A stretch of 64,000 nt of DNA, taken from positions 30,951-94,950 of the forward strand of contig JACQZH010000007.1 of the NCBI GenBank assembly GCA_016213925.1, given 5' to 3'. Below are positions 15,581 to 51,426 of the stretch, one piece after another. The first letter of the stretch is position 1, and the number at the start of each line of letters is the position of its first letter. Source of the DNA: Candidatus Omnitrophota bacterium. GTDB lineage: Bacteria; Omnitrophota; Gorgyraeia; B26-G9. The notes under the pieces were generated by a model. It saw nothing but the letters and a program-made list of their open reading frames with translations. It was not told where the DNA came from and ran no database searches. Both the position numbers and the translations under genes were made by a program.

Positions 15581-16648
15581 ATGGGGCTGACAAAAGAGAC
15601 TGGACAAAAACTAAAAGAGTATATATTAAATAATGTGGATAAGTATCCTAGTCAAATTGTTGCGAAAGCTGCTAAGGAATTTGGAATATCAAGACAAGCG
15701 GTTCATCGGCATATTCGGCAGTTGAAAAATAACAGCGCGCTTGTGTCTGCGGGCAAAGGAAAAAGCGTGCAATATTCCTTGAAAATAATACAGCATACTT
15801 TCCAACTGAAGGTATTTCCTGGGATGAGTGAAGATCAGGTTTGGAAGGAAAAAATATTTCCCAGCCTGCCAAAATTAAATAAAAATATTTTAGATATTTG
15901 TCAATATGGTTTTACGGAAATATTTAATAATGTAATAGACCATTCAGAATCAGAAGAGGCTATAGTTGTTGTGACGGAAGACATAACGTCAATTCTTTTG
16001 TATGTTTCGGATAGCGGAGTGGGGATATTTAATAAAATTCAACAAGCGTTAAAATTAGAAGATCCGCAGCATGCTATTTTAGAATTGGCAAAAGGGAAAT
16101 TTACTACGGATCCGGAGCAACATAGCGGGGAGGGAATATTTTTCACCTCCAGAATTTTTGATAAGTTTGAAATTCTTTCGCAAAATTTATATTTTTATGG
16201 ATATAAGGATGAAGATTGGATTCTTGAATCAGAAAACGGTTTAAGTAAAGGCACCGCGGTATTTATGAAAATTCGCAGGGATTCAAAAACAACAATTAAG
16301 GAAATATTTGATAAATATACTTCAGGGGAAAGCGATTTTGGTTTTTCAAAAACAATTATACCGGTGAGCTTAATGCGGCATGAAGGGCAAGAGCTTGTTT
16401 CTCGTTCGCAGGCAAAACGTTTAATTACAAGATTCGATAGATTTAAAGAAGTAGTGCTGGATTTTCAGGGTGTGACAATGATTGGACAGGCTTTTGCGGA
16501 TGAACTATTCCGGGTTTTTGGAAAACAGCATCCGGAAGTCAGCATTGTCCCGATAAACACAACGGAAGATATTAAAAATATTATCCTGCATGTTAGAGCT
16601 GAATCCGGCGCAACTGATCTGCAAAAAGAGAATAGCGGCGAAAACTAA
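15581..16648 (+). CDS. Fused HTH + GHKL ATPase (RsbW-like anti-sigma kinase fold) + C-terminal STAS-like (DUF4325) protein.
   Basis: N-terminal HTH (GISRQAVHRHIRQL), GHKL N-box (FTEIFNNVIDHS) and G1 (DSGVGIF), then a C-terminal LDFQGV ... AFADELF block typical of DUF4325/STAS-like domains. Confidence 0.6.
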   Translation: MGLTKETGQKLKEYILNNVDKYPSQIVAKAAKEFGISRQAVHRHIRQLKNNSALVSAGKGKSVQYSLKIIQHTFQLKVFPGMSEDQVWKEKIFPSLPKLNKNILDICQYGFTEIFNNVIDHSESEEAIVVVTEDITSILLYVSDSGVGIFNKIQQALKLEDPQHAILELAKGKFTTDPEQHSGEGIFFTSRIFDKFEILSQNLYFYGYKDEDWILESENGLSKGTAVFMKIRRDSKTTIKEIFDKYTSGESDFGFSKTIIPVSLMRHEGQELVSRSQAKRLITRFDRFKEVVLDFQGVTMIGQAFADELFRVFGKQHPEVSIVPINTTEDIKNIILHVRAESGATDLQKENSGEN

Positions 16649-16708: not shown

Positions 16709-17014
16709 TTGGAGCGTATTCATAAATTTTCAAGAAGGAGAAGGAGGATAGTCGTGAAACCGTTAAAAAAAAAGAAAGAAAAAGCAAAAAGAAAAATCAC
16801 TTCGGAGCAAGCTTTCGCTTCTTTGATTGGGCTGCTTCTGACGCTGATTATAATTGCGGTACTTTTATACTCGCTGGCGAATAATAATAAAAACACGGGC
16901 TCTCAACAGGCAGAAGACGCGCCTGCTAATCCAAAAGCAACGCTGGACAAGGCAAAAGAGGCAGTGGGAAACATCAATAAACAGCAGCAAAAGCGTATGC
17001 AAGAGTTGGAATAA
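16709..17014 (+). CDS. Small basic membrane protein, hypothetical.
   Basis: Lys/Arg-rich N-terminus followed by one TM helix. Confidence 0.3.
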   Translation: MERIHKFSRRRRRIVVKPLKKKKEKAKRKITSEQAFASLIGLLLTLIIIAVLLYSLANNNKNTGSQQAEDAPANPKATLDKAKEAVGNINKQQQKRMQELE

Positions 17015-17157
17015 GGCAATAAATTTATTGACCAGGGGGCAGAAAAGGAGTAAGCTATCATTGTGCTTCAGGGATGAATAACGCGATGAGGCAAAAAGCA
17101 GATGCTTTAACATGGTATTAAAACAACCGGATTTTTGCGGTTGTTTTTTCTTTTTTC

Positions 17158-19533
17158 GTGGGGAGTTCAATGTCAAAACAAAAAAATAAAGACCAAAGTT
17201 TTTTACTGTGTGAAAAGATAAAGAAACTGACAACACTGCTTACGCAGGAAAAACAAACGGAACAGGCATTAAGAAGCGGGATTAAGGCCTATATTCAAAG
17301 AGAGAAAGTTTTTCGGCAGTTGTTTGATAATATTAAAACAGCTGTTGCTGTTTATAAGGTTGTTGATAACGGCAAGGATTTTGTTTTTGCGGATTTTAAT
17401 CATGCGGCGGAAAAAATTGATAAAATAAAAAAAGAACAGCTTATCGGGAAAAAAGTCAGCAGGGTTTTTCCCGGGGTAAAGGAATTCGGGTTGTTCGATG
17501 TGTTTAAAAGAGTATGGAAAACCGGTAAGCCAGAGCATCACCCTGTGGGTATTTATAAAGATAAAAGAATCCAGGGGTGGAGGGAAAACTATGTGTATAA
17601 AATCCCTTCCGGAGAAATAATCGCTGTATACGAAGACGCTACCGCGCGCAAACAAGCGGAACAGCAGATGAAAGAGCTAGCAAGATTCCCTAAAGAAAAT
17701 CCGAACTTGGTTTTAAGGGTAACCTTTCAAGGCGAGGTTATTTTTAAGAATAAAGCAGTAGACAGTGTTTTAAAGAGTTTAAGGGTCAATCAAAAAGATA
17801 TTAAAGAAATTCTTCCTAAGAATCTAGCCGCGATAATACGCAAAGCGCGAAAAAATAAAAGGCAATCAGTGAATTCAGAGGTTTCGATAAAAGGCAAAAC
17901 ATATTTTTACGCGATATCTGTGGGAGCGCAAGATGCCAATATCTACGGGTTTGATATTACAGAGCGCAAAAAGACAGAAAAAGAATTATATCACAACTCA
18001 AAACAATTACAGGTCCTCAATGAAAATCTGGCAGAGGGCATGGTGTACCAGATCAACAGCGGCAAAGACGGTTTATCGAGAAAATTTTCCTATTTGAGCC
18101 CGGCAGTGAAAAAGCTTCACGGGTTAGAGCCTAGAGAAGTTATTGCAAATCCGCGTATATTATATGAGCAGGTAATAGAACCAGACCGTTCGTTTCTAGC
18201 AAAAAAAGAAAAGCATGCGTTTGAAACGATGAGTAAGCTTGAAGCTGAAGTTAGGATGCGGCTGCCTTCCGGAGATATCCGCTGGCGTCAATTTGTATCA
18301 ACGCCCAGGATTATGGAGGGTGTTGTTTTATGGGATGGGATTGAACTGGACATCACAGAGCGCAAGCAGGCGGAATTAAAATATAAAACTATTTTAGATA
18401 CCGCGATTGATTGTTTTTATATTATTAACGCGCGGCAAGGCAACATCTTGGAGGTTAATGATGCCTACTGTTCTTTGATTGGATATAGCCGTGACGAATT
18501 GCTTAAGATGAGCTTAAAAGATATTGAATATAAAGAAAACCCTAAGAAAATAGCGCGGCATATGCGGTACATAATCAAGAAAGGCGCGGATCATTTTGAA
18601 ACTCGTCACAGGGCCAAAGAAGGAAGGATTATTGATCTTGAAACGAGTGTTAATTATATGAAAGAAAACAAAAAGTTTTTTGTGTTTATGCATGATATTA
18701 CCGAGCGCAAGAAATATGAGAATGACCTTAAAAAAGCTAAGGAAGAGATAGAAAAATGGAATAAAGAGCTGGAAAAAAGAGTGCGAGAAAAAGCGTGTGC
18801 TTTAAAAGAGGCGCAGGAACAGCTTTTTCAGGCGGATAAACTTAGCAGTATCGGGCAGTTGGGCGCGGGTATCGCGCATGAGTTAAACAGCCCGCTTGCC
18901 GGTTTGCTAAGCTTAATCAGGGCTTATAAAAAGAAAAAAAATCCGGATACGGATGAATACGCGGAATTAGCGGAAATGGAATCAGCCTGCGAATACATGG
19001 CAAGAATAGTTAGAGACTTAAATTTATTTTCCCGGCAAACTGTTGGAGAAACGGAAAAAGCGAACTTAAACGAGCTTATTGAGGCTACAATGTCTTTTAG
19101 CATGCATCAGCTTAAAGCTAAAAATATCATAATAATAAAAAACTATAGCCAAGAACTGGCTGTTTTCTTGGCGGACAAGCGCCGTGTTCAGCAGGTAATT
19201 ATTAACCTGTTGGCAAATGCCTGCGATGCTTTATCCGAGCGCGGTATTTTAACAATTACTACCGGAAATATTAATTTAAATGGGCAAGTGTTTGTTGAAT
19301 TGGAGGTTGCGGATAATGGCTGCGGCATAAAAAAAACGGATATAAAGAAAATTTTTGAGCCTTTTTTTACTACAAAACGCCCGGGGAAAGGCGTGGGGCT
19401 TGGATTAGCTGTTGTTTACAGCATTGTTGAGAAGCACAAGGGCAGGATTTTTGTCAAAAGCAAGGAAGGCGCGGGAACAACATTTACGGTGCAGCTTCCG
19501 GCGCTAGTAGAAACAAGGACTGCTGAAAAATAA
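17158..19533 (+). CDS. PAS/PAC-domain sensor histidine kinase.
   Basis: H-box AGIAHELNSPL, N-box NLLANACDAL, G-boxes DNGCGI and GVGLGLAVV. Multiple PAS-like segments upstream. Confidence 0.85.
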   Translation: MGSSMSKQKNKDQSFLLCEKIKKLTTLLTQEKQTEQALRSGIKAYIQREKVFRQLFDNIKTAVAVYKVVDNGKDFVFADFNHAAEKIDKIKKEQLIGKKVSRVFPGVKEFGLFDVFKRVWKTGKPEHHPVGIYKDKRIQGWRENYVYKIPSGEIIAVYEDATARKQAEQQMKELARFPKENPNLVLRVTFQGEVIFKNKAVDSVLKSLRVNQKDIKEILPKNLAAIIRKARKNKRQSVNSEVSIKGKTYFYAISVGAQDANIYGFDITERKKTEKELYHNSKQLQVLNENLAEGMVYQINSGKDGLSRKFSYLSPAVKKLHGLEPREVIANPRILYEQVIEPDRSFLAKKEKHAFETMSKLEAEVRMRLPSGDIRWRQFVSTPRIMEGVVLWDGIELDITERKQAELKYKTILDTAIDCFYIINARQGNILEVNDAYCSLIGYSRDELLKMSLKDIEYKENPKKIARHMRYIIKKGADHFETRHRAKEGRIIDLETSVNYMKENKKFFVFMHDITERKKYENDLKKAKEEIEKWNKELEKRVREKACALKEAQEQLFQADKLSSIGQLGAGIAHELNSPLAGLLSLIRAYKKKKNPDTDEYAELAEMESACEYMARIVRDLNLFSRQTVGETEKANLNELIEATMSFSMHQLKAKNIIIIKNYSQELAVFLADKRRVQQVIINLLANACDALSERGILTITTGNINLNGQVFVELEVADNGCGIKKTDIKKIFEPFFTTKRPGKGVGLGLAVVYSIVEKHKGRIFVKSKEGAGTTFTVQLPALVETRTAEK

Positions 19534-30674: not shown

Positions 30675-30860
30675 TAGTCAAAATTAATTTACTGCCAGAT
30701 ATTTCTTAGGAATCCGTAAAATATAACCTAATTTGACATTGCGTAATAAAAAGATGTGATTTATAATATAAGACGGAACGTTACCGAGTTTCAAAAGGAA
30801 ATATTACTCAACAAGATTAATTCGGCCAGATAAGTTATGGCCTCACTAAGGAGCGCGTAT

Positions 30861-33422
30861 ATGAGCCAAGAGTTTACCGGTAATGAAGCCCGGCAGAATG
30901 ACGGCGATTCCGGGCAGAATAAAGCGGATCAAACGCAGTGGATAAGCATAAAACGCCCGATGACAAAAGACGGGGTAATAAGCTCGTTTAAGGATAACCG
31001 CCAGTATTTTCTGGCGAAGGACCAATATTCCGCGACAAAATACGATAATTTTATGGCTATGGCCATGTCTATTCGCGATCGGCTCGTAGAACGGTGGATT
31101 CTTACCCAGCAGCGTTACCACCGGGAAAATTTAAAAAGAGTTTATTATCTTTCCATGGAGTTTTTAATCGGCCGCCTCTTGGCAAATAATATCTTAAACC
31201 TGGGGATTTGGGATGAATCGCTTCAGGCGCTTGAAGAAATTGGTTTTGATGCGGATACGCTATTAAACCAAGAACCGGACGCGGGATTGGGAAACGGCGG
31301 ATTAGGAAGGCTGGCTGCCTGTTTTCTTGATTCAATGGCAACGCTTGGAATTCCGGCGTACGGCTACGGTATAAGGTATGATTACGGGATTTTTCATCAA
31401 AAGATTATCGACGGATACCAGGTAGAATTGCCGGATGAGTGGCTTAAGCGCGGTAACCCCTGGGAATTTGCCAGGCCTGAATATACGGTCAAGGTACGTT
31501 TTTACGGGAAGACCCGCTCATTTCATGACCGCAACGGCAGATTAAGGGTTGTCTGGGCTGATACAAAAGATGTTCTTGCCGTCCCCTATGATTTTCCGGT
31601 GCCCGGATATAAAAATGATGTTGTAAATACCTTGCGCTTATGGTCAGCGCGCAGCGCAGAAGAGTTCGATTTTGAATATTTCAATGACGGGGATTATGAG
31701 CGCGCGGTGTATGACCAGGTTTTTTCAGAGAATATTTCAAAGGTGTTATATCCGAATGATATTATTATCCAGGGTAAAGAATTACGATTAAAACAGGAAT
31801 ATTTTTTTACGGCAGCCGCGATTTCGGATATTATCCGCAGGTTCAAGGCGGATAACTCTGATTTGCGCGTTTTTCCTGAAAAAGCGGTTATTCAGCTTAA
31901 TGATACTCATCCGTCTCTGGCCATTGTTGAGCTGATGCGTATTTTAATCGATGAAGAAGATATGGAATGGGACAGCGCCTGGAATATTGTATCCAGGTCA
32001 TTTGCTTATACAAACCATACAATTATGCCGGAAGCGCTGGAATCCTGGCCGGTTCCGTTGTTTGAGAAAATTTTGCCCAGGCATCTGCAATTGATTTATG
32101 AAATAAACCACCGGTTTTTAAGAGAGGTTGCCAACCGCTATCCCTGGGACCAGTTTAGGCTGGGGAGGATGTCTATAATAGAAGAAGGAGATCCTAAATA
32201 TATAAGAATGGCCTATCTTAGTATTGTCGCCAGTTATTCCATTAACGGGGTTTCTGCGCTGCATTCAAAGTTGATAAAAGAAACGCTTTTTAAGGATTTT
32301 CATGATTTATGGCCGGAAAAGTTCAATAATAAAACTAACGGAGTTACCCAGCGGCGCTGGTTAAGAAAAGCCAATACCGGCTTAGCGGGTTTGATAAGCA
32401 AAACAATTTCCGATAAATGGATAACGAACCTTAATGAACTGGAAAACCTGATGCAGCATATCGAAGACCCTTCCTTTAGAGAACAATGGCGGCAGGTTAA
32501 AGCGGAGAACAAAAAAAAGCTTTCCAATTATATCTTCCAAACACTGCATATACAGGTTAATCCAGAAGCGTTGTTTGATGTGCAGGTTAAAAGAATCCAT
32601 GAATATAAACGCCAGCTTTTGTTCGGGCTTTATATCATTTCCCAGTATTTGAAATTAAAAGATAACCCCAATGCCGGGATTCTGCCGCGGACATTTATTT
32701 TCGGCGGAAAATCAGCGCCGGGATATTTTATGGCAAAGCTGGCGATTAAATTTATCAGCCGGATTGCCGATATCATAAATAATGACAAGGGAGTAAAAGA
32801 TATTTTGCGGGTAGCTTTCCTGGAAAATTACAGTGTTTCTTTAGCGGAAAACATATTCCCTGGCAGCGATCTTTCCGAGCAGATATCAACAGCCGGAACC
32901 GAGGCGTCCGGGACGGGATGCATGAAGTTTATGCTTAACGGAGCGTTGACGATCGGTACCTTAGACGGGGCTAACATTGAAATAAAAGAAGCGGTTGGAA
33001 ATGAGAATCTTTTTATTTTCGGGTTAAGAGAATCGGAAGTGCAGGCGCTTAAACATGGAGGATATGACCCGAAACAATACATTAGCCGTTCACCGATGTT
33101 AAAAGAAGTGTTTTCTTTGATTCAGAGCCACTTCTTTTCACCGCTTGACCCGGATCTTTTTGACCCGATAATAGACAACTTGCTTCTAAAGGATCCGTTT
33201 ATGATTTGTGCGGATTTTGATTCTTACTGTCAGGCGCAGGATAGGGTTTCTTCGGAATACCGCAACTTGGATGTCTGGACAAAGAAATCGATTGTTAATA
33301 CCGCTAAGTCAGGAAAATTTTCCAGCGACCGCACAATTGCCGAATACGCCAAACAGATATGGGGCGTGCCGGTTAATCAAAAGCTTTGCGGGGAATTTTT
33401 GGGGTCGGGTCAAAACTATTGA
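30861..33422 (+). CDS. glgP: Glycogen/alpha-glucan phosphorylase. Start at 30861 preferred because of the SD AAGGAG.
   Basis: EASGTGCMKFMLNGALTIGTLDGANIE (PLP-Lys region); about 850 aa and family-typical throughout. Confidence 0.9.
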   Translation: MSQEFTGNEARQNDGDSGQNKADQTQWISIKRPMTKDGVISSFKDNRQYFLAKDQYSATKYDNFMAMAMSIRDRLVERWILTQQRYHRENLKRVYYLSMEFLIGRLLANNILNLGIWDESLQALEEIGFDADTLLNQEPDAGLGNGGLGRLAACFLDSMATLGIPAYGYGIRYDYGIFHQKIIDGYQVELPDEWLKRGNPWEFARPEYTVKVRFYGKTRSFHDRNGRLRVVWADTKDVLAVPYDFPVPGYKNDVVNTLRLWSARSAEEFDFEYFNDGDYERAVYDQVFSENISKVLYPNDIIIQGKELRLKQEYFFTAAAISDIIRRFKADNSDLRVFPEKAVIQLNDTHPSLAIVELMRILIDEEDMEWDSAWNIVSRSFAYTNHTIMPEALESWPVPLFEKILPRHLQLIYEINHRFLREVANRYPWDQFRLGRMSIIEEGDPKYIRMAYLSIVASYSINGVSALHSKLIKETLFKDFHDLWPEKFNNKTNGVTQRRWLRKANTGLAGLISKTISDKWITNLNELENLMQHIEDPSFREQWRQVKAENKKKLSNYIFQTLHIQVNPEALFDVQVKRIHEYKRQLLFGLYIISQYLKLKDNPNAGILPRTFIFGGKSAPGYFMAKLAIKFISRIADIINNDKGVKDILRVAFLENYSVSLAENIFPGSDLSEQISTAGTEASGTGCMKFMLNGALTIGTLDGANIEIKEAVGNENLFIFGLRESEVQALKHGGYDPKQYISRSPMLKEVFSLIQSHFFSPLDPDLFDPIIDNLLLKDPFMICADFDSYCQAQDRVSSEYRNLDVWTKKSIVNTAKSGKFSSDRTIAEYAKQIWGVPVNQKLCGEFLGSGQNY

Positions 33423-33517
33423 CAAAATTGCCATTTTTTATCCGCTTCTCTCTGCCCTGCTTTAATACCTACGCATTGAGGGACATTAACTTGATATTTT
33501 CTACTGCAATTTTTCAG
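33408..33517. repeat. 110-bp dispersed repeat R1, copy 1 (overlaps the glgP stop); about 96% identical to 35680-35789.
   Basis: Direct comparison of ggtcaaaactattgacaaaattgccatttttta ... caatttttcag between the two loci. Confidence 0.85.
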
Positions 33518-33538
33518 ATAATATGATAATATTACACT

Positions 33539-33787
33539 ATGAAATACACTATTGAGTTTAAACCTCGTGCTGTTAAAGATTGCCGGCGTATTGATAAAAA
33601 ATTAGCAAGAATTATTTTTTTTAAAATTGAATCATTATCAAATAACTTACAGGGTGACGTGAAAAAGTTGGCAGATTTTACGCCTGAATACCGCCTGCGT
33701 GTCGGTGACTATCGGGTTTTATTTGAAATTGAAGAAGATAAAATTATTATTTATAGAATAAGGCACAGAAAAGAAGCCTACATTTAA
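33539..33787 (+). CDS. RelE/ParE-family type II toxin.
   Basis: 82 aa; C-terminal YRVLFEIEEDKIIIYRIRHRKEAY is a typical RelE/ParE fold signature. Confidence 0.7.
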   Translation: MKYTIEFKPRAVKDCRRIDKKLARIIFFKIESLSNNLQGDVKKLADFTPEYRLRVGDYRVLFEIEEDKIIIYRIRHRKEAYI

Positions 33788-33799
33788 GGAGGTTTTATA

Positions 33800-33997
33800 A
33801 TGACTATTCATGCTCAAATCTTAAAAAGAAACGGTAAAAATGAATTTGCTGTCCTGTCCTATGAAGAATTCCTAAAAATACAAGAAATACTGGATAACTA
33901 TGCGGATTTAAAAGCGTTACGTTTGGCAAAAGCTAAAGAAAAAAATGCTAAAACCGTTTCTTTAAAAGAAGCAAAAAAAATTATCCGCTTTAATTAA
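33800..33997 (+). CDS. Putative antitoxin (65 aa, non-HTH, Phd/RelB-like) downstream of the toxin.
   Basis: Small ORF 12 nt after the toxin with a helical Lys-rich C-terminus. The toxin-first gene order is read directly. Confidence 0.45.
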   Translation: MTIHAQILKRNGKNEFAVLSYEEFLKIQEILDNYADLKALRLAKAKEKNAKTVSLKEAKKIIRFN

Positions 33998-34070
33998 CCC
34001 TCTATCAACTCGCTTCAGCTAACTGGTGGGCATGCCCAGGAGCTCACCCCAGTAGCTGAGTTCACGCGTT

Positions 34071-34323
34071 GAGTTATGGGACATATTAGTTAATTAGATA
34101 TTGCCCATGGAATAAGTGTATTGCAACGAAAGGGAACGATGCCTGTTCCCTCCTTAGGGCGCTCCGACATCCTGTCTTCGCCCATTCACCTGAATTAAAG
34201 AACATCAGCTGAAAATTCCAAATGGGGAAATTCCATGCAGAAGCAAAAAATGATTGCCGCGGTAAAAGATAAGGATTAAAATAGAAACACGTATAAAAAT
34301 CACAAAAACAAAAGAAAAAGTCT
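34071..34323. repeat. About 250-bp dispersed repeat R2, copy A, with internal hairpin (gggaac ... gttccc).
   Basis: About 95% identical to 35885-35966 plus 36188-36357. Confidence 0.85.
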
Positions 34324-34434
34324 GTGGTTTGACTTTTTCTACAGGCTCGTTAGACAAAAATGAAAGGAGGATTTTAAAATAAATATTTAAAATAAATGTT
34401 AAATAAAATTTAATTTTAAAGAGGAGGTTATTCT

Positions 34435-35565
34435 ATGAAATGGGGAGGAATTGTTTTATTCATAATAGTCTTGGGCATAATAAATGTTTCTTTAGCTCAT
34501 GCCGTTGATTCTTCTGATATTATTGCTATGTGGCGTATGGATGAGGGCAATGGAAGCGTATTATATAATAGTTCAAATGCAGGATCGGCGTATGACGGGG
34601 ATATATACGGGGCAACTTGGACGGACGGGATCTCAGGCAAAGCGTTACAATTCGATGGTACTAGTGCATATGTGAAAATTCGCAGTAATGTTCCGACTCC
34701 AGTATCAGGATATACAATAGAAGCATGGGCATATCTTGATAGAACCCCTGATAACCTTTCAGGAATAATCCTTGAAAAGTGGTTGTCCGGACAAGGCCCT
34801 GCCTGGATATTAAGTGTACTTAATCAGCTTAACGGCATTTCCTTAAATCCAAATTTTGATTGGGGAGTATCCGGATCCGGACTGGGAACCCCGGCAAATT
34901 TTTCGGTAACATTAAATGAATGGCATTATATAGCAGGAACTGTCGCTTATAATCCTGCGACGAATATTGCCACAAGCAGAATCTATGTTGATGGCACGTT
35001 GAAAAATACAGTTATTGCCTCACATTCAGGCACCCCATCGGATTGCAATACTGATGTCGCTATCGGCGTGGGTGATTTTGCTAATTTAGAAAAAAGGCAT
35101 TATTTCCCGGGTAAAATAGATGAAATAACTATTTATAATCGAGCTTTATCCGATGAGGAGATTCAGCAAAACTATTATTCAATACTGGCATATGAAATCG
35201 GCTTAGATATTGATCCTAATTCATTAAATTTAAAAAGTAATGGAGAATATATTACTGGATATTTATGTTTAGACAAAAACATATCTTATTCTCAGGTAAA
35301 TATTAATACCATAAGAATAACCATGCTCAGCATTGAGAATGGAGAAAAAATAACAACTAATATTCCTGCTGTGCCTGGTCTTGAGGGATATTCTGATTAT
35401 GACGGTGATGAAATTATAGATATCATGGTAAAATTTGACCGGGATTCTTTAATTTCTTTACTCTTGTCAAAAGTAACCGAAAAAACAAAATTAGAAATTA
35501 CAGTTGAAGTAGAAACAATTTCCGGCAAGAAACTTATAGGTAAAGATACTATTATTGCAAAATAA
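34435..35565 (+). CDS. Secreted LamG-like (concanavalin A-like lectin/glucanase superfamily) domain protein.
   Basis: Signal peptide. ALQFDGTSAYVKI ... YTIEAWAYL and GKIDEITIYNRALS resemble the LamG_3 pattern. Confidence 0.55.
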   Translation: MKWGGIVLFIIVLGIINVSLAHAVDSSDIIAMWRMDEGNGSVLYNSSNAGSAYDGDIYGATWTDGISGKALQFDGTSAYVKIRSNVPTPVSGYTIEAWAYLDRTPDNLSGIILEKWLSGQGPAWILSVLNQLNGISLNPNFDWGVSGSGLGTPANFSVTLNEWHYIAGTVAYNPATNIATSRIYVDGTLKNTVIASHSGTPSDCNTDVAIGVGDFANLEKRHYFPGKIDEITIYNRALSDEEIQQNYYSILAYEIGLDIDPNSLNLKSNGEYITGYLCLDKNISYSQVNINTIRITMLSIENGEKITTNIPAVPGLEGYSDYDGDEIIDIMVKFDRDSLISLLLSKVTEKTKLEITVEVETISGKKLIGKDTIIAK

Positions 35566-35580
35566 GCATCAGAGAACTAG

Positions 35581-35625
35581 GGGGCAGCGGGTCACAAAAT
35601 TAACGCTCCCCCCCTGCCTTATTAT
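35581..35625 (+). terminator. Possible intrinsic terminator after the LamG gene (imperfect GC stem).
   Basis: ggggcagcg ... cgctccccc followed by ttattatt. Confidence 0.3.
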
Positions 35626-35679
35626 TCGGAAAGCGCGCTGTGGGACTTAGATAAAAGTATAAAAGATTGACCGAGGTCA

Positions 35680-35789
35680 GGTCCAAACTATTGACAAAAT
35701 TGCCATTTTTTATCCGCTTCTCTCTGCCCTGCTTCAATACCTACTCATTGAGGGACATTAACTTGATATTTTCTGCTGCAATTTTTCAG
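35680..35789. repeat. R1 copy 2.
   Basis: See 33408-33517. Confidence 0.85.
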
Positions 35790-35884
35790 GACGCTGAGGG
35801 ACGCGCAGGACGCTGAGGACGTAGATAAAAGTATAAAAGAGTAACCTGGTTCAAGTCTCGACTTGACTACATGTTAATTTGTAC

Positions 35885-36357
35885 GAGTTATGGGACATAC
35901 TAGTTAATTAGATATTGCCCATGGAATAAGTGTATTGCAACGAAAGGGAACGATGCCTGTTCCCTTAGACCCTTAGCCCATATTTCTTTTGTCCGCATAA
36001 AAGAAATATGGAAAAGAAAAAGCGCCCCAGTGGAATTTTTTTGCGATGTTCTTCTTTTTCTGGTTTAGCAGGCAAGATAATTCAGGTGAATGGATTCAGG
36101 CACGCATAAAAACTGCGTGCCTTCACGCCAATAAGGCAGTCCTGTCCGCCTGTGAAGCGGCGGGACCTCGATGTACTCTGTAGCGGGCCTTAGGGCGCTC
36201 CGACATCCTGTCTTCGCCCATTCACCAGAATTAAAGAACATCCGCTGAAAATTCCAAATGGGGAAATTCCATGCAGAAGCAAAAAAATTATTGCCGCGGT
36301 AAAAGATAAGGATTAAAATAGAAACACGTATAAAAATCACAAAAACAAAAGCAAAAG
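35885..36357. repeat. R2 copy B, interrupted by an insertion of about 220 bp (35967-36187). The insertion carries its own 13-bp-arm palindrome ccatatttctttt ... aaaagaaatatgg.
   Basis: Alignment with copy A. A further partial copy of the R2 5' end lies at 36388-36425. Confidence 0.8.
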
Positions 36358-36989
36358 TTAAACAAGGACGAGACCATAATTTAAGGAGCTGGGGATATAC
36401 TAGTTAGATAATTAGATATTGGAAGCCACCCGGGTAGACCTCGAAAGCAGAAAATAGCATCATCCGCTTCCTTCTAATCCAATATTTTTATCGACAAATA
36501 AAACAAAAAATAAATTTAACCAGGCTAAATACAGAGAAAACCAAGAAAATCTCTGTGTCCTCTGTGGTGGAAAATAGCGGCGAAAAATAAAGGGTTGCGG
36601 AGATTTAGTGTTGAGCCTGTAGGAAAAGCCCCAAAAACCGCTTATTTCGGGTATCAGGCGCATACAAATTTAAAAAATATGGTATAATGAAAATATGAAA
36701 ATGTTAAGGGGCAAGGCTAAGCTAATTAAAATGCCTAAAAGTGACGACCCTTTTATCGCTGAACCGCCACAACTATGTATTAGTTTTATATGGGAACTTA
36801 CGGCGGAATTGTGGTCATTGAAAGGAGCAGCATATGTTGAACGAAGATTACAAAGAAATGTTACAAATCTTATTAAACAATGAGGTAAAATTTTTTAAAA
36901 AAATTATCAGAAATAAAAAAGCTAAAGGAAGATAAAAAGATAAACGGGATGTTAAATATTAAAAGAGGAATAGGAATGTTAATCTTAAA

Positions 36990-37607
36990 ATGAGCGGACT
37001 TTTTTCCCGTGTGTATAGAAAAAACAATAACCAAAACGTTTATGTTGCCGGCATCCTGGGCAGCCCGCGTATCCAGGGTAATTGCGATATACTGCTGGAT
37101 AAAGCGCTGGAAGGCGCTTCGGCAACAGGAGCGAGGATAGAAAAAATCATTTTAAATAATTTTAATTTTTCCGGCTGCCTTTCCTGTGAAGATGTCCGCG
37201 ATGACGGCAATTGTAAAGTTAAAGACGATTTTCAGCAAATATACCGAAAGCTGTTTACGGCGGATATAATTATTATCGCCAGCCCGATTTACTTCGGGAG
37301 CCTGACTGCCCAGACAAAAACAATGATTGACCGTTTTCAGTGTTTTTGGCGCGCGGTAAATATCACCAAAACAATTGCTCTGGATAAGGAAAAACGCGGA
37401 GGGTTTATTTGCGTGCAGGCGGATAACCGGGAGGATTTTTTTAAGAACGCGCAGTTTGTCGTAAAGCAGTTTTTTGCCGCGATCGGGGTCAGGTATTGCG
37501 AGGAACTTTTTTGCCAGCAAGTTGAAGAAAAAGCGAGTATAAAAAACCGCCCGGAATGTTTAAAGGATGCGTTTGCTCTTGGAGAACTCTTAGTTAACAG
37601 GGAATAA
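36990..37607 (+). CDS. NADPH-dependent FMN reductase / flavodoxin-like fold protein with a Cys cluster (iron-sulfur flavoprotein-like).
   Basis: VYVAGILGSPRIQGN ... IIIASPIYFGSL is typical of the FMN_red family. A CLSCEDVRDDGNC cysteine cluster is present. Confidence 0.6.
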   Translation: MSGLFSRVYRKNNNQNVYVAGILGSPRIQGNCDILLDKALEGASATGARIEKIILNNFNFSGCLSCEDVRDDGNCKVKDDFQQIYRKLFTADIIIIASPIYFGSLTAQTKTMIDRFQCFWRAVNITKTIALDKEKRGGFICVQADNREDFFKNAQFVVKQFFAAIGVRYCEELFCQQVEEKASIKNRPECLKDAFALGELLVNRE

Positions 37608-44063: not shown

Positions 44064-44486
44064 TTGATGGAAAACAAGAGAATAGCGTGTGTGGTTTTAT
44101 TTGCTTTGATCGTGTTTTGTCCTGTGCGGGTAGTTGCCGGGGTTATCGGACAAAACGATGATGAAGTACGTTTAGTATGCGACCCGCTTTTAGATAATAT
44201 TTTCACCGGCCTCGACGAGGATAACTATTTCCAGTATTCCCGCGATTTTGATATGTCGCTTAAACAAACACTTTCTACAGGGCGCTTTGAAGAAGTAAGA
44301 ACACAGATTATGAATTGGGCGGGAAATTGTTTATACAGGGAGTATCTAGGTTTTATCAATAGAAAAGCGATAACGATTGTTTTTTGGAAAGGGGTATTTG
44401 ATAAGACTAACGATGATATTTTGATTAAAATGGTTGTTAGCGAAAAAGACGGCAGGTATTTAATTACAGGGCTGTGGTTTCAGTGA
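44064..44486 (+). CDS. Small secreted protein, conserved family (paralog of 48185-48598).
   Basis: Signal peptide. The C-terminal block WKGVFDKTNDDILIKMVVSEKDGRYLITGLWFQ is shared with the paralog. Confidence 0.5.
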   Translation: MMENKRIACVVLFALIVFCPVRVVAGVIGQNDDEVRLVCDPLLDNIFTGLDEDNYFQYSRDFDMSLKQTLSTGRFEEVRTQIMNWAGNCLYREYLGFINRKAITIVFWKGVFDKTNDDILIKMVVSEKDGRYLITGLWFQ

Positions 44487-47837: not shown

Positions 47838-47893
47838 AAATAGCCTGGAATATTTCTTTTTATTTGAAAAAAAAGGTAAATGCGGTGTAAATT

Positions 47894-47939
47894 ATCCCAA
47901 AATTTGCCTGTCTGCCGCCAGGCAGGCAAAATTTGGGAT
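47894..47939. repeat. Palindromic REP-like hairpin element (cccaaaatttgcctg ... caggcaaaatttggg), intact copy.
   Basis: About 15-bp perfect stem read directly; related copies at 49715-49908. Confidence 0.8.
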
Positions 47940-47961
47940 TATGCATGTAAATAGATGAAGA

Positions 47962-48171
47962 ATCCCTTGCTTAAACACCGGTTTACTCGGCAAGCTGCGG
48001 GATTAATTCGCGCAGTAATTTATGTCGCTTATGCTCCATAAAATATGTGCTTGATGTAGGTACTCCGCTTCGTAGCAACGGGCAAATTATCTGTGATAAT
48101 TCGCTCCGTACTCAGCGGAGTTAATTCGTCCCGGCGCTTCGCTTTGCGAAGCAAACGGTCGGGACTCATTA
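47962..48171. repeat. Composite intergenic repeat: module A (47962-48014) and module B (48115-48171) abutting the RBS of 48185. Both modules recur at 51427-51553.
   Basis: Module B is 57 bp and identical at both loci; it contains nested hairpins (gtcccg gc gcttcgc tttgc gcgaagc ... cgggac). Confidence 0.85.
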
Positions 48172-48184
48172 AAAGGAGGAGAGA

Positions 48185-48598
48185 ATGAGGTATTGGAAAG
48201 TATTTATTGTCGGAGTGCTTTTATTAATCAGCCCGGGATTGGTTTTTGCCGGCCAGCGGATTAAGAGAGGAAGAAGCTCGGAAATAAAAGCAGAAAAGAT
48301 ACTCGATAATATTTTATTCGGCTTTAAGTTAGACGATTATAACATTTATGCCCGCGATTTTGATCCGGCTTTAAAAATAAGCGGCGCGCGTACTAAGTTT
48401 TATCATGTAAACAGATATATCAATAGAGTTTTGGGAAGTTATGTTACCCGTGAATACATGGGAAGTTTGCGTAAGGGAGATATTATAATCGTATTGTGGA
48501 AAGGAATATTTGATAAGTCAGAGGAAGATGTTTTGATCAAACTTGTGATGCAGAAGAAAAACAGCCGTTATTATGTCACAGGGCTCTTGCTGCAGTGA
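48185..48598 (+). CDS. Small secreted protein, paralog of 44064-44486.
   Basis: Shared C-terminal block WKGIFDKSEEDVLIKLVMQKKNSRYYVTGLLLQ. Confidence 0.5.
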   Translation: MRYWKVFIVGVLLLISPGLVFAGQRIKRGRSSEIKAEKILDNILFGFKLDDYNIYARDFDPALKISGARTKFYHVNRYINRVLGSYVTREYMGSLRKGDIIIVLWKGIFDKSEEDVLIKLVMQKKNSRYYVTGLLLQ

Positions 48599-48705
48599 GA
48601 ACAGGCAACATGTAAACGCAGAATTTTTTGATATAAAATTACCTAATCAGTTGGCTCTTTTTTGGAAGGATATTTTTAAGGGAGGCTTTCTTTTAATATT
48701 AATCC

Positions 48706-49671
48706 ATGCGAAATAATAAAAAAAATTTAGCAATAACGGCTTTGTCAGTATTGCTAATTTTTTTAGCAGCAAATAAAGGGTTAGGACAAATCAAAGAAGG
48801 CTGCGATAGTATTAGTACGGAGAATTACGCCAATAAAACGCTTGAATACTATTACTATATACCTGAAGCTGTGGCGGGAAATAAAAATGCTTCATATCCC
48901 TTGCTAATAATGGTTCCGGGGCTCTCCGGAAAAGGCGAGTGGTTGGTTAATAATGAAGTTAAAGAATTCGCAGAACGGGAAAAGTTTGTTGTTATCGCGC
49001 CGTCGTTTGTTTTTGATGAGAGAAACTGGGATACGCTAGAAAGCTACCACTATCCGTCAGTTTGGTCCGGCAAGGCGCTTCTTGAGATAATAAGGCAGTT
49101 TGAAGATAAAAATAATCTTTTTTTGTCGAAGTTTTGTCTTTTTGGGCACTCTGCCGGAGCGCAGTTTGTATTGCGGTTTGCGTTATGGAAACCGCAATTA
49201 TGCGAGGCTTGCGCGGCTCATGCAAGCGGAGGAAGCATAAAGCCGATAGAATATGTAAGCGTTAAATTTTTTGTTACGATAGGCAAACAGGATACTTCTT
49301 TAAGAAAAAAAGTCGCCGAAGAATTTTTTGATACTGCAAAGAAAAATATCATCAAAGTTACATATAAGGAATATGATACCGGCCATGACATGATAAAGGA
49401 GCAATTTAGCGATAGTTTGGACTTTTTCACGCAGGGTAAAATGCCTTTTAACGAAAATAGCGGAGTTTTTGAAAGTATTAATCAAAAGGCGGTTTGTGAA
49501 GGTTTTATTGGAGATACTGTGGTTTATTTAAAAAACGGATGCAAGACAGAAGGCAGGTTTAAGAGCGAAACGGATAAAAAAATTATTTTGGAAATCGCTC
49601 TCGGCAGCACAACCGGGCAAATAGCAATTTCTAAAAACCGGGTTAAATCCATAAAAAGATTAGATAAGTGA
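48706..49671 (+). CDS. Secreted alpha/beta-hydrolase (esterase/lipase) carrying the same C-terminal module of about 50 aa as the TPR protein at 42495.
   Basis: Nucleophile elbow GHSAGAQ, signal peptide, and C-terminal VVYLKNGCKTEGRFKSETD. Confidence 0.7.
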   Translation: MRNNKKNLAITALSVLLIFLAANKGLGQIKEGCDSISTENYANKTLEYYYYIPEAVAGNKNASYPLLIMVPGLSGKGEWLVNNEVKEFAEREKFVVIAPSFVFDERNWDTLESYHYPSVWSGKALLEIIRQFEDKNNLFLSKFCLFGHSAGAQFVLRFALWKPQLCEACAAHASGGSIKPIEYVSVKFFVTIGKQDTSLRKKVAEEFFDTAKKNIIKVTYKEYDTGHDMIKEQFSDSLDFFTQGKMPFNENSGVFESINQKAVCEGFIGDTVVYLKNGCKTEGRFKSETDKKIILEIALGSTTGQIAISKNRVKSIKRLDK

Positions 49672-49714
49672 TACGCTGGCATCTAAAACAATTTTGGAAG
49701 ATGGTTAGTTATTT

Positions 49715-49908
49715 ATCCCAAAATTTGCCTGTCTGCCGCCAGGCAGGCAGTAGGAATCATTTTGCGACGAAAGCTATCTGCACGAAAAAGTGCGAGCAAA
49801 TTTCGGGATTACCTCGACAAACACGAGAAAGTCTCGTCGAGATTTTCTCGGTCGACCCTACGGGCAAATTTTGCTATTGCCTGTCTGCCAGCCAGGCAAA
49901 ATTTGGGT
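49715..49908. repeat. Second locus of the palindromic element: a left half (49715-49749) and a right half (49879-49907) separated by an insert of about 125 bp that has its own hairpins.
   Basis: Direct comparison with 47894-47939. Confidence 0.7.
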
Positions 49909-49925
49909 TTATGCGGTGATTTGAT

Positions 49926-51179
49926 ATGGAGAAACTCAAAAGATTTTTTTTGATTATATCATGGGCCATGTACGACGCGGCAAACCAGTTTTTCGCGTTA
50001 AATATTGTTTCTTTATATTTTGTGCGTTGGATAACTCTGGTAAAAGGAGCTCCGGAGTTTGTCTATGGAATTACCTTCGGGCTTTCCAGTATTTGCGTAG
50101 CTGTGCTTTCTCCTTTACTGGGAACAACGGCGGATGTGCGCGGAAAACATAGATTTTTTCTAATAATGTTTACGTTATTAAGCGTAATATTTACCATGTT
50201 TTTATCGGTTGTGAATAATGTGTTGCTTGCGTTAATTTTTTTCGCGATTGCCAATATCGGCTGCCAGGAAGCGGGAATATTTTATAATGCCTTGATGCCG
50301 GATATTTCTTCTAAATATAAAATCGGCATTATTTCCGGAGTGGGGAAAATGTTCGGGTATTTTGGGGCAATACTGGCTTTATTTTTTACAAGTCCATTGA
50401 TAGAGACTCAGGGATATCAGCGGGTATTTTTAATTACCGGAATATTGTTTTTGCTGTTTGCGTTGCCGTGCCTTATTTTTATTAAGGACAGGCCGCATAA
50501 CTTAAGTAACGAACAGATAATAACTGACAAGATCTTTGACCGCAGGAAGATTAAAGTTGTTTTTGAGCGCCTGCGCATTACGCTTTTTACTAATCATGAC
50601 CAAAGCGGACTGCGAGAATTTTTAAAAGCCGGGTTTTTTGGTTTATGCGTTGTGCAGGCTGTGATGCTGTTTATGGCAGTGTATGTAACTAAAGTGCTTG
50701 GGTTACAGGAGGCGCAAGTGCTGAAGCTAATAATATTAGGCACATTTTTTGCGATTTTCGGAAGCATTGGCTCAGGTATTATCAGCGACTATATCGGGCA
50801 TAAGAAAACAATGCTGCTGGTTTTTGCTTTGTGGATTGTTTGTCTTGTCGCGGGAGCTTTGGTTATTGCGCCTTTTCAATATGTTATCAGCGCATTGGCC
50901 GGAATCAGCCTGGGGGCTACCTGGGTTGTTTCGCGCGCTTTGGTTATCAGCATGGTCCCGCGTGAACAAGCTGGGGAGGCTTTTGGATTGTTTAGCCTTA
51001 TAGGATATCTTTCCGGCATAGTTGGCCCGGCAGTTTGGGGGATTTTGATTATTCTGATGCGGCCTTTTGGTGTTATGGGAACCCGCATGGTCCTTCTATG
51101 TTTTATTCCTTTTATGATAATCGGTTGTTTATTTTTAATGCGCATTCCCGAGATTAACAGCAAATTGCCGGAGGTATAA
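49926..51179 (+). CDS. Major facilitator superfamily transporter.
   Basis: 12 predicted hydrophobic helices; TADVRGKHRFF MFS loop motif. Confidence 0.8.
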   Translation: MEKLKRFFLIISWAMYDAANQFFALNIVSLYFVRWITLVKGAPEFVYGITFGLSSICVAVLSPLLGTTADVRGKHRFFLIMFTLLSVIFTMFLSVVNNVLLALIFFAIANIGCQEAGIFYNALMPDISSKYKIGIISGVGKMFGYFGAILALFFTSPLIETQGYQRVFLITGILFLLFALPCLIFIKDRPHNLSNEQIITDKIFDRRKIKVVFERLRITLFTNHDQSGLREFLKAGFFGLCVVQAVMLFMAVYVTKVLGLQEAQVLKLIILGTFFAIFGSIGSGIISDYIGHKKTMLLVFALWIVCLVAGALVIAPFQYVISALAGISLGATWVVSRALVISMVPREQAGEAFGLFSLIGYLSGIVGPAVWGILIILMRPFGVMGTRMVLLCFIPFMIIGCLFLMRIPEINSKLPEV

Positions 51180-51181
51180 AA

Positions 51182-51219
51182 AGAGGCTAGAAGATAACTT
51201 CTAGCCTCTTTGCCTTTTG
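51182..51219 (+). terminator. Rho-independent terminator after the MFS gene.
   Basis: agaggctagaag-ataa-cttctagcctct followed by a T-rich tail. Confidence 0.55.
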
Positions 51220-51426
51220 CCCGTGGGGTGGGAGAAATACGAGCAAAAGGCGGTGAAAACAGAATAAAAACAACTCTGCTTTCACATATTCCCTTATATA
51301 GTTTAGATGCTCAAGCAAGGTAAAAGTTGCAATATTTTAAAACAAAATCGCTAAAAAAGCTAGAAGAATTTTTTTAATGCGGTATAATGTATTTTAAAGT
51401 TTTGCCGTATGAAGGCTGTTTTAAAA

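Follow-up and report, generated by a model that had tools for sequence, protein, structure and literature searches.

A recombination-prone islet between glgP and an FMN-reductase gene in an Omnitrophota genome, with repeated copies of a predicted structured non-coding element

The DNA analysed here (the window) is a 64-kb stretch of an Omnitrophota metagenome-assembled genome (MAG). In it the + strand gene glgP (30837-33422), which encodes glycogen phosphorylase (Pfam Phosphorylase, E=0; 100% identity to NCBI MBI4845081.1), is separated by 3,567 nt from a + strand gene for an FMN reductase/flavodoxin-like protein (36990-37607; PF03358, E=1e-19). In five related lineages (L001, L002-7, L008, L009 and L096-98) the same gap measures only ~40-120 nt. 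Because the junction is tight in these relatives, the comparison of gene order shows the interval 33423-36989 to be a lineage-specific accessory islet. Judged by synteny in L001-L009 and L096-L098, the FMN-reductase gene is the right edge of this islet and the ancestral neighbour of glgP. The GC content is 0.30-0.39 across much of the islet versus about 0.42-0.45 in the flanks. In a further relative (L094/95) the same junction is occupied by an unrelated porin-like gene.

The islet carries three small cassettes, and two kinds of non-coding module, R1 and R2, lie between them. The first cassette is the toxin-antitoxin (TA) pair that had been proposed in an earlier note on this DNA. Its toxin gene (33539-33787, + strand; NCBI MBI4845082.1) is well supported as a member of the ParE/RelE family by Pfam (ParE_toxin PF05016, E 4e-13), whereas the NCBIfam RelE/ParE matches are weak. 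It precedes a 65-aa ORF (33800-33997, + strand) that is a putative antitoxin gene: the RelB-like and PhdYeFM Pfam matches are weak (E about 3e-4, below cut-off), and the placement directly 3' of the toxin gene adds support. The cassette ends in an imperfect palindrome (34016-34059, + strand; TCAGCTAACTGGTGGG ... CCCCAGTAGCTGA, read from the sequence), which is probably a terminator-like hairpin. The second cassette is an orphan gene for a secreted LamG-domain protein (34435-35565, + strand), for which the earlier assignment was borne out by Laminin_G_3 (E=2e-23) and of which the closest non-self homologue is only 31% identical. By eye, a signal-peptide-like segment was seen at the N-terminus of this protein. 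The third cassette starts with a conserved 62-aa ORF (HY810_01190, 36695-36883, + strand) that opens a module of two genes and has 118 homologues that reach 84% identity; it is 79% identical to a 61-aa gene in L088. Its decayed partner (36834-36980, + strand), detected by tblastn and blastn against L088 4140-4592, is a pseudogene of a 150-aa DUF6036-like nucleotidyltransferase that keeps residues 1-20 and 125-150, contains stop codons and has lost about 305 nt internally. The intact L088 protein, partner of the 61-aa gene, gives a weak DUF6036 match.

Self-alignment by BLAST confirmed that R1 and R2 are present where they had been described, with E-values of 1e-34 to 1e-76 that are far beyond chance. 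R1 occurs as R1a (33403-33517, + strand) and, as noted earlier, again ~2.2 kb downstream as R1b (35675-35789). Both are 115 nt long and 95.7% identical (E about 1e-47), with five mismatches scattered along the repeat and a 50-nt identical stretch; R1 showed no palindrome and no significant RNA fold (z=+1.3). R1a indeed begins within the last codons of glgP. The stop codon is at 33420-33422, and R1a provides the final 20 nt of the gene. Roughly nine terminal codons of glgP form an extension that is absent from relatives, the C-terminus reading ..VPVNQKLCGEFLGSGQNY* in the window versus ..VPYKNNF* and ..VPSHPFK* in relatives. The 5' side of R1a is truncated through fusion with the end of glgP, which received its last six codons and stop from the repeat. 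R1b, with the preceding stretch (pre-R1, 35633-35674; together 35633-35789, + strand), is the fuller copy that has retained its upstream context, because this context is common to a third, older partial copy. The latter was recognized through an additional 41-nt repeat that the earlier note had missed (35643-35683 vs 35817-35857, 83%, blastn) and that continues into an incomplete copy of R1 spanning 35811-35873 (E 0.006 with nhmmer). Pre-R1 reads ..DLDKSIKD* in frame, similar to ..DVDKSIKE* at 35823-35849, and it may be the remnant of some gene's 3' end.

R2 is present as R2a (34071-34321, + strand) and R2b (35885-36358, tentatively assigned to the - strand). Their left parts (34071-34151 vs 35885-35965) are 98.8% identical over 81 nt and their right parts (34152-34321 vs 36188-36358) 97.1% identical over 171 nt with one indel; in R2b they are split by 222 nt (35966-36187, no strand assigned). 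The GGGAAC/GTTCCC hairpin reported earlier was found at 34131-34151 in R2a and at 35945-35965 in R2b. A third fragment, corresponding to the 5' end of R2, had also been reported; it is present at 36392-36421 (+ strand) and is weak, with an E of 0.1-0.3 in a local search. The gap between R1 and R2 measures 553 nt in copy 1, where it houses the TA pair, and 95 nt in copy 2. This 95-nt spacer (35790-35884, + strand) contains GGACGCTGAGG twice, as short GC-rich direct repeats, and the partial pre-R1/R1 5' end mentioned above. As the two spacers have nothing in common, the idea that the TA cassette was inserted into, or deleted from, an R1-R2 unit was abandoned in favour of a replacement. The boundaries of R1 and R2 are sharp and mutually independent, no microhomology was visible at the four repeat junctions, and further R1 or R2 copies were found neither elsewhere in the window nor, as matches, in GTDB representative genomes or JGI metagenomes, collections in which the source genome itself is not represented.

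The position of R1a raises the question whether the R1 copies are attL/attR-type scars at the 3' end of glgP, left by integrase-less elements that accreted in tandem and were mobilised in trans. That the first R1 overlaps a conserved gene at its 3' end and provides it with a new stop codon, that a direct repeat 2.27 kb downstream brackets accessory cargo with a TA pair, and that the same junction varies in another lineage would all fit, and hypervariable loci rich in recombinases have been reported for Omnitrophota genomes (10.64898/2026.06.07.730766). We nevertheless consider this unlikely. No integrase or transposase domain was detected among the scanned window ORFs, a set that comprised those of at least 120 aa apart from shadow ORFs that overlap others and a few backbone genes whose synteny with relatives is kept. 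The ancestral glgP end is not the origin of R1, which is absent in relatives, and the right edge of the islet has no significant R1 copy, just a 14-nt match of 86% at 36462-36475. In addition, the five R1 mismatches are dispersed instead of flanking an identical core, the 50-nt stretch notwithstanding, and duplication of an att site leaves the parallel duplication of R2 unexplained.

The 222 nt had been taken for an insertion inside one R2 copy. The description of this stretch was accurate: it contains a palindrome with 13-15-bp arms (35978-36011) and an inverted partial copy of the right part of R2, 36078-36093 being 100% complementary to 34182-34197 and 36031-36053 being 78% complementary to 34198-34220. 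The conclusion was not, since R2b positions 61-420 are collinear with L009 17011-17281 (nhmmer E=4e-10), a homology that crosses both junctions of the presumed insert and in which the 222 nt correspond to L009 17024-17089 onward. The L009 element is non-coding and lies in a 459-nt mutL-TPR spacer that is only 6-33 nt long in the window, L001, L094 and L096. In comparison with shuffled sequences both elements fold significantly (R2b z=-6.3 on the + and -5.3 on the - strand; L009 z=-5.8 and -6.7, respectively). The R2 element is modelled as a hairpin-rich non-coding element of roughly 360-470 nt, consisting of HP1, HP2 and a long helix P1 that encloses small hairpins. In R2b (+ coordinates) these map to 35945-35965 (HP1), 35978-36011 (HP2), 36022-36093 (P1 5' arm), 36099-36121 and 36139-36166 (inner hairpins), 36202-36212 (GACA/TGTC hairpin) and 36218-36265 (P1 3' arm). 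The order of the helices is identical in L009. When aligned by sequence alone, 52 of the 64 window pairs remain canonical in L009, versus 24-32 in shifted-partner controls. Of the 40 hand-registered pairs in five helices, 28 are unchanged and 8 show compensatory change, whereas 2 are broken and 1 has changed on one side only; RNAalifold gave 6 compensatory changes for HP1-HP2; as the family has only two independent sequences, window and L009, this covariation comes from one pairwise comparison that is partly hand-registered.

The P1 5' arm is located in the 222 nt and the 3' arm in the right part of R2. This distribution, together with the collinearity, argues that the 222 nt are integral to the element and that R2a is a deletion derivative. 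It retains HP1 and the 3' arm of P1 without HP2, the P1 5' arm and the inner hairpins. Thus, the earlier suggestion that R2 is structured holds only with the 222 nt included; the 250-nt form folds no better than expected by chance (z=-0.6 and z=-1.2), and R2a is probably inert. The 16-mer 36078-36093 of the P1 5' arm is a perfect complement to the 3' arm of R2a and has one mismatch to that of R2b, which suggests that R2a was copied from a full-length element. That R2 is instead a 250-nt unit, of which copy 2 was struck by a separate 220-nt MITE-like mobile insert with its own palindrome, would agree with the uninterrupted state of R2a, with the good fold of the 222 nt alone (z=-3.3) and with a short CCTTAG motif close to both junctions. 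It is improbable and is largely refuted by the collinear element in L009 and by the compensatory changes between the genomes in a helix whose arms are split between insert and R2-right. Besides, the 222 nt lack terminal inverted repeats, R2a is not rebuilt exactly by the candidate target duplication (TAGAC, 5 nt, is surplus), and neither the window nor viral contigs yielded a second copy.

The explanation that accounts best for the locus as a whole, and in which we have moderate confidence, is an islet with a structured R2 element, local copying of R1...R2, loss of 222 nt and replacement of the spacer. An R1...R2 block would have been duplicated inside the islet, over a distance of about 2.2 kb, by unequal or non-allelic recombination or by template switching during replication. 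The 222-nt deletion would have followed, and the inter-repeat spacer would have been replaced by the TA cassette, or the reverse. A single block duplication requires such an extra, precise replacement because the boundaries are sharp and the inter-repeat DNA is entirely different. The R2 family itself could be a small repeat, either mobile and non-autonomous or structured, or else an sRNA transcribed from the minus strand. The most likely reading is local duplication and decay in a plastic islet with a structured and possibly mobile element. The earlier proposal of a recombination hotspot is supported in the form of a plastic, recombination-prone non-coding scaffold surrounding accessory genes, and the interpretation given in that note is, as a whole, partly supported. 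Most of what is seen at the locus is the usual plasticity of genomes, and a single structured element is of modest interest. The direct repeats would be expected to leave the islet prone to deletion: recombination between R1a and R1b would delete the TA pair and LamG, that between R2a and R2b LamG alone, and the TA pair could counter-select the former.

The source is a MAG and the copies differ by 1-4%, as strains do, so that a metagenome assembler might have concatenated the strain variants R1-TA-R2 and R1-95 nt-R2+222. Such a chimera is quite improbable. The sequence 5' of R1b is that downstream of LamG and not glgP, and R2a is followed by LamG, unlike R2b; since these contexts differ from those of the other copies, the join would need real bridging sequence. 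Moreover, partial copies that are older and more diverged (83% and about 75%) point to a longer history of duplication at the locus.

Each R2 copy lies upstream of a + strand gene, at a distance of 113 nt from LamG and of 336 nt from the 62-aa ORF, as would be expected of a promoter module or 5' leader that acts in cis and was duplicated along with these genes. This is highly improbable: the two genes are unrelated, the broken copy (R2a) is the one upstream of the intact LamG gene, a promoter scan revealed nothing above shuffled expectation, the near-threshold Rfam match and the G-U pair counts point to the opposite strand, and the TPR gene that follows the L009 element is without it in four other compared lineages. 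Sites of the attC type are 57-141 nt long, far below the 250-470 nt of R2; R1 has no palindrome, no IntI or tyrosine recombinase occurs among the scanned ORFs, the TA cassette lacks a GTTRRRY box on its left side, and GTAC GAGT instead of GTT GAGT precedes R2b, which places this boundary away from the canonical crossover. We hence give almost no credence to a CALIN, an array of integron-like cassettes that has no integrase, in which R2 or the palindrome of the TA tail would serve as attC-like folded sites, in spite of the co-oriented ORFs with hairpin-rich DNA after each, the 44-nt imperfect palindrome with bulged bases at the TA tail, the GTTGAGT (GTTRRRY-like) box at the R2a boundary, and the TA cassette, a cargo that chromosomal integrons carry (PMC13108822).

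The Rfam comparison suggested earlier for R2 was carried out, and no family reached threshold. Below threshold, L009 17091-17245 (minus strand) matched the whole TwoAYGGAY model with 37.8 bits (gathering score 43), whereas R2b gave no match to it at E<=10. Together with the G-U pair counts, this hint from L009 leads us to favour, tentatively, the minus strand as the RNA strand of R2b. The description of TwoAYGGAY (PMC2864571 supplement) includes two AYGGAY loops and a P1 of very large size. The R2 family resembles this motif, to which it may be distantly related.

The glgP protein of the window matches NCBI MBI4845081.1, encoded in a Candidatus Omnitrophica/Omnitrophota MAG, at 100% identity, and the next-closest glgP proteins are 77-80% identical. 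The gene order in those relatives is EF-G, response regulator(s), glgP, FMN reductase, mutS, mutL and a TPR protein. Among the loci fetched from other genomes, glgP lies 40 nt from the FMN reductase gene in L001, 110 nt in L002-7, ~50 nt in L008, 74 nt in L096-98 and ~120 nt in L009, against 3,567 nt in the window. This implies that the entire 33423-36989 interval is a lineage-specific insertion. No homology to any part of this islet was found in the corresponding spacers of the relatives. At the same junction, one further relative (L094, 10865-12100; L095, 5912-7147) carries an unrelated 411-aa porin-like gene with a weak Porin_O_P match and the C-terminus ..YYNF. The glgP / FMN-reductase site is therefore a recurrent insertion spot. 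In the relative GCA_043806135.1 the contig (L099, 12476-12598) stops 123 nt past glgP, just beyond a GGGGCCATTCTT...AAGAATGGCCC hairpin; here, too, the assembly may have broken because the sequence downstream of glgP is variable or repeated.

The calls for a ParE/RelE toxin, a LamG gene and glgP made in an earlier note from the sequence alone were borne out. Its toxin-antitoxin (TA) pair at 33539-33997 stands as far as the toxin is concerned (ParE_toxin, 50.1 bits versus a cut-off of 23), whereas the antitoxin has sub-threshold RelB and Phd matches. By domain and adjacency, the ParE_toxin domain and the adjoining 65-aa ORF as putative antitoxin point to a type II TA module. The LamG gene is an orphan, with a best homologue of 31% identity, and the GC content is below that of the flanks over much of the islet. 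No Pfam match to an integrase, transposase, resolvase or reverse transcriptase was present in the ORFs scanned across the window, which were at least 120 aa long. Distant-mode blastn for a plasmid or phage origin returned only a 66-nt match of the antitoxin to Stanieria plasmids and no phage matches; promoter and terminator predictions were not enriched over shuffled sequences.

A further cassette lies to the right of the interval covered by the earlier note. It consists of the 62-aa ORF HY810_01190 (36695-36883), whose product has a place in a family of 118 small proteins. A 79%-identical homologue in a second Omnitrophota MAG (L088/L089) overlaps a 150-aa gene with weak similarity to DUF6036 nucleotidyltransferases, and this module is situated directly downstream of an rve-family transposase, amid BrnT and DUF4160/DUF2442 modules. 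Just residues 1-20 and 125-150 of the partner, with stop codons present, are left in the window, so ~305 nt have been deleted. The islet is made up of three small accessory modules, one of which has decayed. Judged by its domains at least one is a TA pair, and another resembles a two-gene module of the TA type by context only. At the DNA level the 62-aa module (window 36667-36980; L088 3973-4586; L091/L092 4061-4204; L093 4091-4179) is 83-86% identical across this MAG, the other Omnitrophota MAG and Planctomycetes MAGs. Many homologues are found on contigs of 400-1000 nt, and in the Planctomycetes loci the partner gene is internally deleted in a layout resembling that of the window. The unusually high conservation of this DNA across phyla suggests that the module may be mobile or subject to an unrecognised RNA-level constraint.

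Self-comparison of the region and of the entire 64-kb window recovered all repeats that the earlier note had listed, with E-values of 1e-34 to 1e-76, by which chance is excluded. R1 (115 nt) occurs at 33403-33517 (R1a) and 35675-35789 (R1b) with 95.7% identity, R1a starting 20 nt upstream of the glgP stop codon. R2 comprises a left part of 81 nt (34071-34151 in the first copy, R2a, and 35885-35965 in the second, R2b; 98.8% identity) and a right part of 171 nt (34152-34321 and 36188-36358; 97.1%). In R2b the two parts are separated by 222 nt (35966-36187) that contain a palindrome with arms of 13-15 bp (35978-36011) and inverted partial copies of the right part. A third, weak 5' fragment of R2 is located at 36392-36421. 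In addition, 35811-35873 matches 35630-35700 and represents an older, partial duplicate of the R1 5' end together with the sequence upstream of it. R1 and R2 agree in that the second copy is the fuller one and the first is derived. The 64-kb window holds no further copies of R1 or R2. In collections that do not include the source MAG, exact-pattern scans gave no match for the left part of R2 (GTDB representative genomes), for the right part or R1 (JGI metagenomes), or for the consensus of the R2 hairpins HP1 and HP2 (viral contigs), so that these negatives bear little on copy number in the source genome.

R1 is unstructured (fold z=+1.3) and has no relatives in any fetched locus. A TTG-start ORF of 46/49 aa in both copies was rejected as a gene, having no ATG and a ratio of 3 non-synonymous to 2 synonymous changes; there is no convincing coding signal in R1. 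A diversity-generating retroelement was likewise rejected, because there is no reverse transcriptase among the scanned ORFs, because the R1 mismatches (G/A, A/C, T/C, G/T, A/G) are not adenine-confined and because just 20 nt of R1a are coding. R1b retains ~40 nt of upstream context that recurs in the older partial copy, and in both places this context reads in frame as ..D[LV]DKSIK[DE]-stop; it may be the leftover 3' end of a lost gene. R1a is devoid of this context and is joined to glgP. The window glgP has a C-terminal tail of ~9 residues beyond that of the relatives, and its final six codons and stop codon are supplied by R1a. R1 invaded the glgP end rather than arising from it.

In the earlier note the 222 nt were regarded as an insertion inside one copy of R2. 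This reading does not hold. Unexpectedly, comparison of the islet with all fetched loci by blastn revealed that window 35962-36028 matches positions 17024-17089 of L009 (78%), a relative whose glgP is 78% identical. With the 222 nt included, positions 61-420 of R2b are collinear with L009 17011-17281 (nhmmer, E=4e-10). The L009 element lies in a mutL-TPR spacer of 459 nt (16925-17383), which measures just 6-33 nt in the window, L001, L094 and L096. The element thus sits at different intergenic sites, each otherwise compact, in two related genomes. Against shuffled controls, R2b folds with z=-6.3 on the plus strand and -5.3 on the minus strand, and the L009 element with -5.8 and -6.7, respectively. 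The earlier suggestion that R2 is structured therefore holds for the element with the 222 nt, but not for R2 as it was first delimited (z -0.6, -1.2). R2b and L009 share a GC-rich HP1, a 15-bp HP2 and a long imperfect closing stem, P1, the 5' arm of which (36022-36093) is within the 222 nt and the 3' arm (36218-36265) within the right part of R2. P1 encloses small hairpins, among them a conserved GACA...TGTC hairpin. In a sequence-only alignment 52 of the 64 window pairs are canonical in L009, against 24-32 in shifted-partner controls. Over five hand-registered helices, 28 pairs are unchanged, 8 compensatory, 1 one-sided, 2 broken and 1 deleted, and RNAalifold on HP1-HP2 alone yielded 6 compensatory pairs; this covariation represents one pairwise comparison, window versus L009, part of it hand-registered. 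Because the P1 arms straddle the supposed junction and co-vary, the 222 nt are original and integral to R2, and R2a is the copy that lost them. A 16-mer at 36078-36093 is the perfect complement of the R2a 3' arm and has one mismatch to that of R2b itself, which implies a full-length ancestor for R2a.

The predicted folds weakly favour the minus strand as that of the RNA. Base pairs in total and G-U pairs are both more numerous on it, and in L009 its fold is the more stable by 17 kcal/mol; HP1 would on this strand be 3'-terminal and followed by a modest U-rich tract. R2 was rejected as a coding remnant, since no frame is conserved and a 1-nt indel shifts the sole small ORFs; a minus-strand 91-aa ORF has no Pfam match. 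No Rfam family reached its gathering score for R1, R2a or R2b, and window-wide only tRNA-Ser passed. Permissive thresholds gave only chance microRNA-like matches on the HP2 palindrome, and known RNAs were rejected on this basis. Single- and two-sequence nhmmer profiles (up to 1.34 Mb of fetched loci) and an HP1-HP2 covariance model (294 kb, the window and 19 loci) detected no members besides the window and L009, so that the family has two independent members so far.

Of the histories considered, the following is the best supported. An accessory islet would have formed at the variable glgP / FMN-reductase junction, holding the structured non-coding and possibly mobile element R2. The R1...R2 block would then have been duplicated ~2.2 kb away inside the islet, by unequal or non-allelic recombination or by template switching, after which R2a would have lost the 222 nt and the spacer between the repeats would have been replaced. 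No sequence is common to the 553-nt spacer, which holds the TA pair, and the 95-nt spacer. The direct repeats may now predispose the islet to RecA-type deletions: recombination of R1a with R1b would excise 2,272 bp, taking out both LamG and the TA pair, and that of R2a with R2b ~2.0 kb, taking out LamG. The TA pair, being within the R1 interval, could counter-select the former deletion. Most of this is ordinary islet plasticity, and R2 is the one modestly novel item. The annotation value is mostly corrective: a small accessory islet fills the interval from glgP to the FMN reductase gene, the 222 nt are the core of R2, and R2a is a broken derivative of this element. Interest beyond annotation is confined to R2.

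Several other features of the window were noted. A second, unrelated intergenic repeat set at 47890-51560 frames the genes 48185-48598, 48706-49671 and 49926-51179. It includes a 46-nt perfect palindrome, ATCCCAAAATTTGCCTG...CAGGCAAAATTTGGGAT (47894-47939), with partial copies at 49713-49749 (100% over 37 nt) and 49862-49914, a 58-nt hairpin unit at 48114-48171 and 51426-51483 (100% identity), and a 94% match between 47982-48014 and 51521-51553. From their sequence these repeats look REP/MITE-like and would form a family separate from R1/R2, which suggests that the genome is generally rich in palindromic intergenic repeats. A tRNA-Ser(CGA) at 10177-10266 is followed, up to 16650, by genes for a Bro-N domain protein (10646-11506), a 426-aa ORF devoid of Pfam matches (11887-13167), a RecG C-terminal ATPase-like fragment (14111-14791) and a HATPase_c_2/DUF4325 protein (15581-16648). 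This region, in which no integrase domain was detected, looks like a small defence or mobile islet beside the tRNA. At the left edge (298-774) an ORF with a SocA/Panacea antitoxin domain precedes a 169-aa ORF that has no Pfam match, and the two may be another TA-like module. The small ORFs 44064-44486 (140 aa) and 48185-48598 (137 aa) are paralogues, as their last 112 nt are 71% identical; the relatives have a DUF3887 gene at the position of the former.

Genomic islets and islands at the 3' end of a conserved gene, flanked by direct repeats, are a known class. The islet resembles them in being inserted between a pair of genes with conserved synteny in relatives, in the overlap of R1a with the glgP end, where it rebuilds the stop codon, in its cargo of TA modules and a surface or secreted protein, and in a base composition below that of the flanks. 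It differs in that no integrase is present among the scanned ORFs and in that the repeats are internal, do not bracket the whole islet and do not come from the target gene. Integration at an att site is less well supported than the history set out here. The same holds for the other rivals, namely an assembly chimera, a cis-acting leader, an integron-like array and the insertion of a MITE into R2b. For an att-site island, the scanned ORFs of 120 aa or more contain no site-specific recombinase, the R1 copies bracket only 2.27 kb of the 3.57-kb islet, and R1 is absent from the glgP ends of the relatives, so that it is not target-site-derived.

Structured intergenic repeats and MITE-like elements (Correia/NEMIS, ERIC, RUP, BOX, REP/BIME) are small non-autonomous mobile repeats. 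R2 is similar to these in being non-coding, hairpin-forming and a few hundred nt long, in its occurrence at different intergenic sites of related genomes within otherwise compact spacers, and in having full, deleted and fragmentary copies. The orthologous sites of both the window and the L009 locus are empty in relatives, and only local copies were seen (the source MAG is outside the searched DNA). In contrast to such elements, R2 has no definable terminal inverted repeats or target duplication, only three R2 loci are known and no cognate transposase is known. The same applies to a MITE inserted into R2b: the boundaries of R1, R2 and the 222 nt show neither terminal inverted repeats nor a target-site duplication, and the long inverted repeat P1 is internal, not terminal. 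An integron is recognised by IntI or by at least two attC sites with R''/R' boxes (RYYYAAC ... GTTRRRY). Against an integron-like array or CALIN stand the absence of IntI or another recombinase among the scanned ORFs of at least 120 aa, a single GTTRRRY-like box, and repeat boundaries that are not at G|TT. TA modules have been described to stabilise integron cassette arrays and plasmids (PMC13108822, PMC6354349). The internally duplicated islet proposed here likewise has a RelE/ParE-family TA pair between direct repeats whose recombination would delete this pair and its neighbours, but it has no integron machinery; the antitoxin is putative, and a stabilising role is purely inferred.

Among RNA families, R2 is closest in architecture to TwoAYGGAY, an RNA of unknown function that combines two AYGGAY loops with a very large P1 (Weinberg et al., 2010; PMC2864571 and supplement) and has been found in human gut, Clostridiales and gamma-Proteobacteria. 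On the minus strand of L009, 17091-17245 in the P1 domain matches RF01731 (TwoAYGGAY) across all model positions, 1-168, with 37.8 bits, the gathering score being 43; the corresponding E-values are 1e-4 for 301 nt and 0.02 for 65 kb. R2b and R2a of the window gave no match at E<=10. Both R2b and L009 have a large imperfect P1 closing at least two short hairpins, and R2, like TwoAYGGAY, is tied to no particular downstream gene. Instead of two AYGGAY loops, L009 has one exact AUGGAU and one near-AYGGAY loop (AUGAU). The window minus strand has a single degenerate loop, GACA-GGA-UGUC, two unrelated hairpins replacing the second AYGGAY hairpin. HP1 and HP2 are two extra conserved hairpins outside the motif, and the host phylum is Omnitrophota. 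Because one of the two L009 loops is degenerate, the window copy has different inner hairpins and goes undetected, and the L009 score is below gathering, R2 is regarded as TwoAYGGAY-like in architecture and not as a member; it is possibly a distant relative. It seems rather unlikely, though worth stating, that full-length R2 (HP1, HP2 and the P1 domain) represents a new Omnitrophota ncRNA class of ~300-450 nt, distantly akin to TwoAYGGAY, that is mobile or travels with, and perhaps guides or stabilises, small accessory cassettes at hypervariable intergenic sites. If so, mobile DNA would be the first functional context for TwoAYGGAY-type RNAs, which have been without a known function since 2010. 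That a structure-conserving, TwoAYGGAY-related element is present in lineage-specific insertions beside TA cassettes, in a phylum that has received little study, is a hint that motifs of this kind may be part of mobile DNA.
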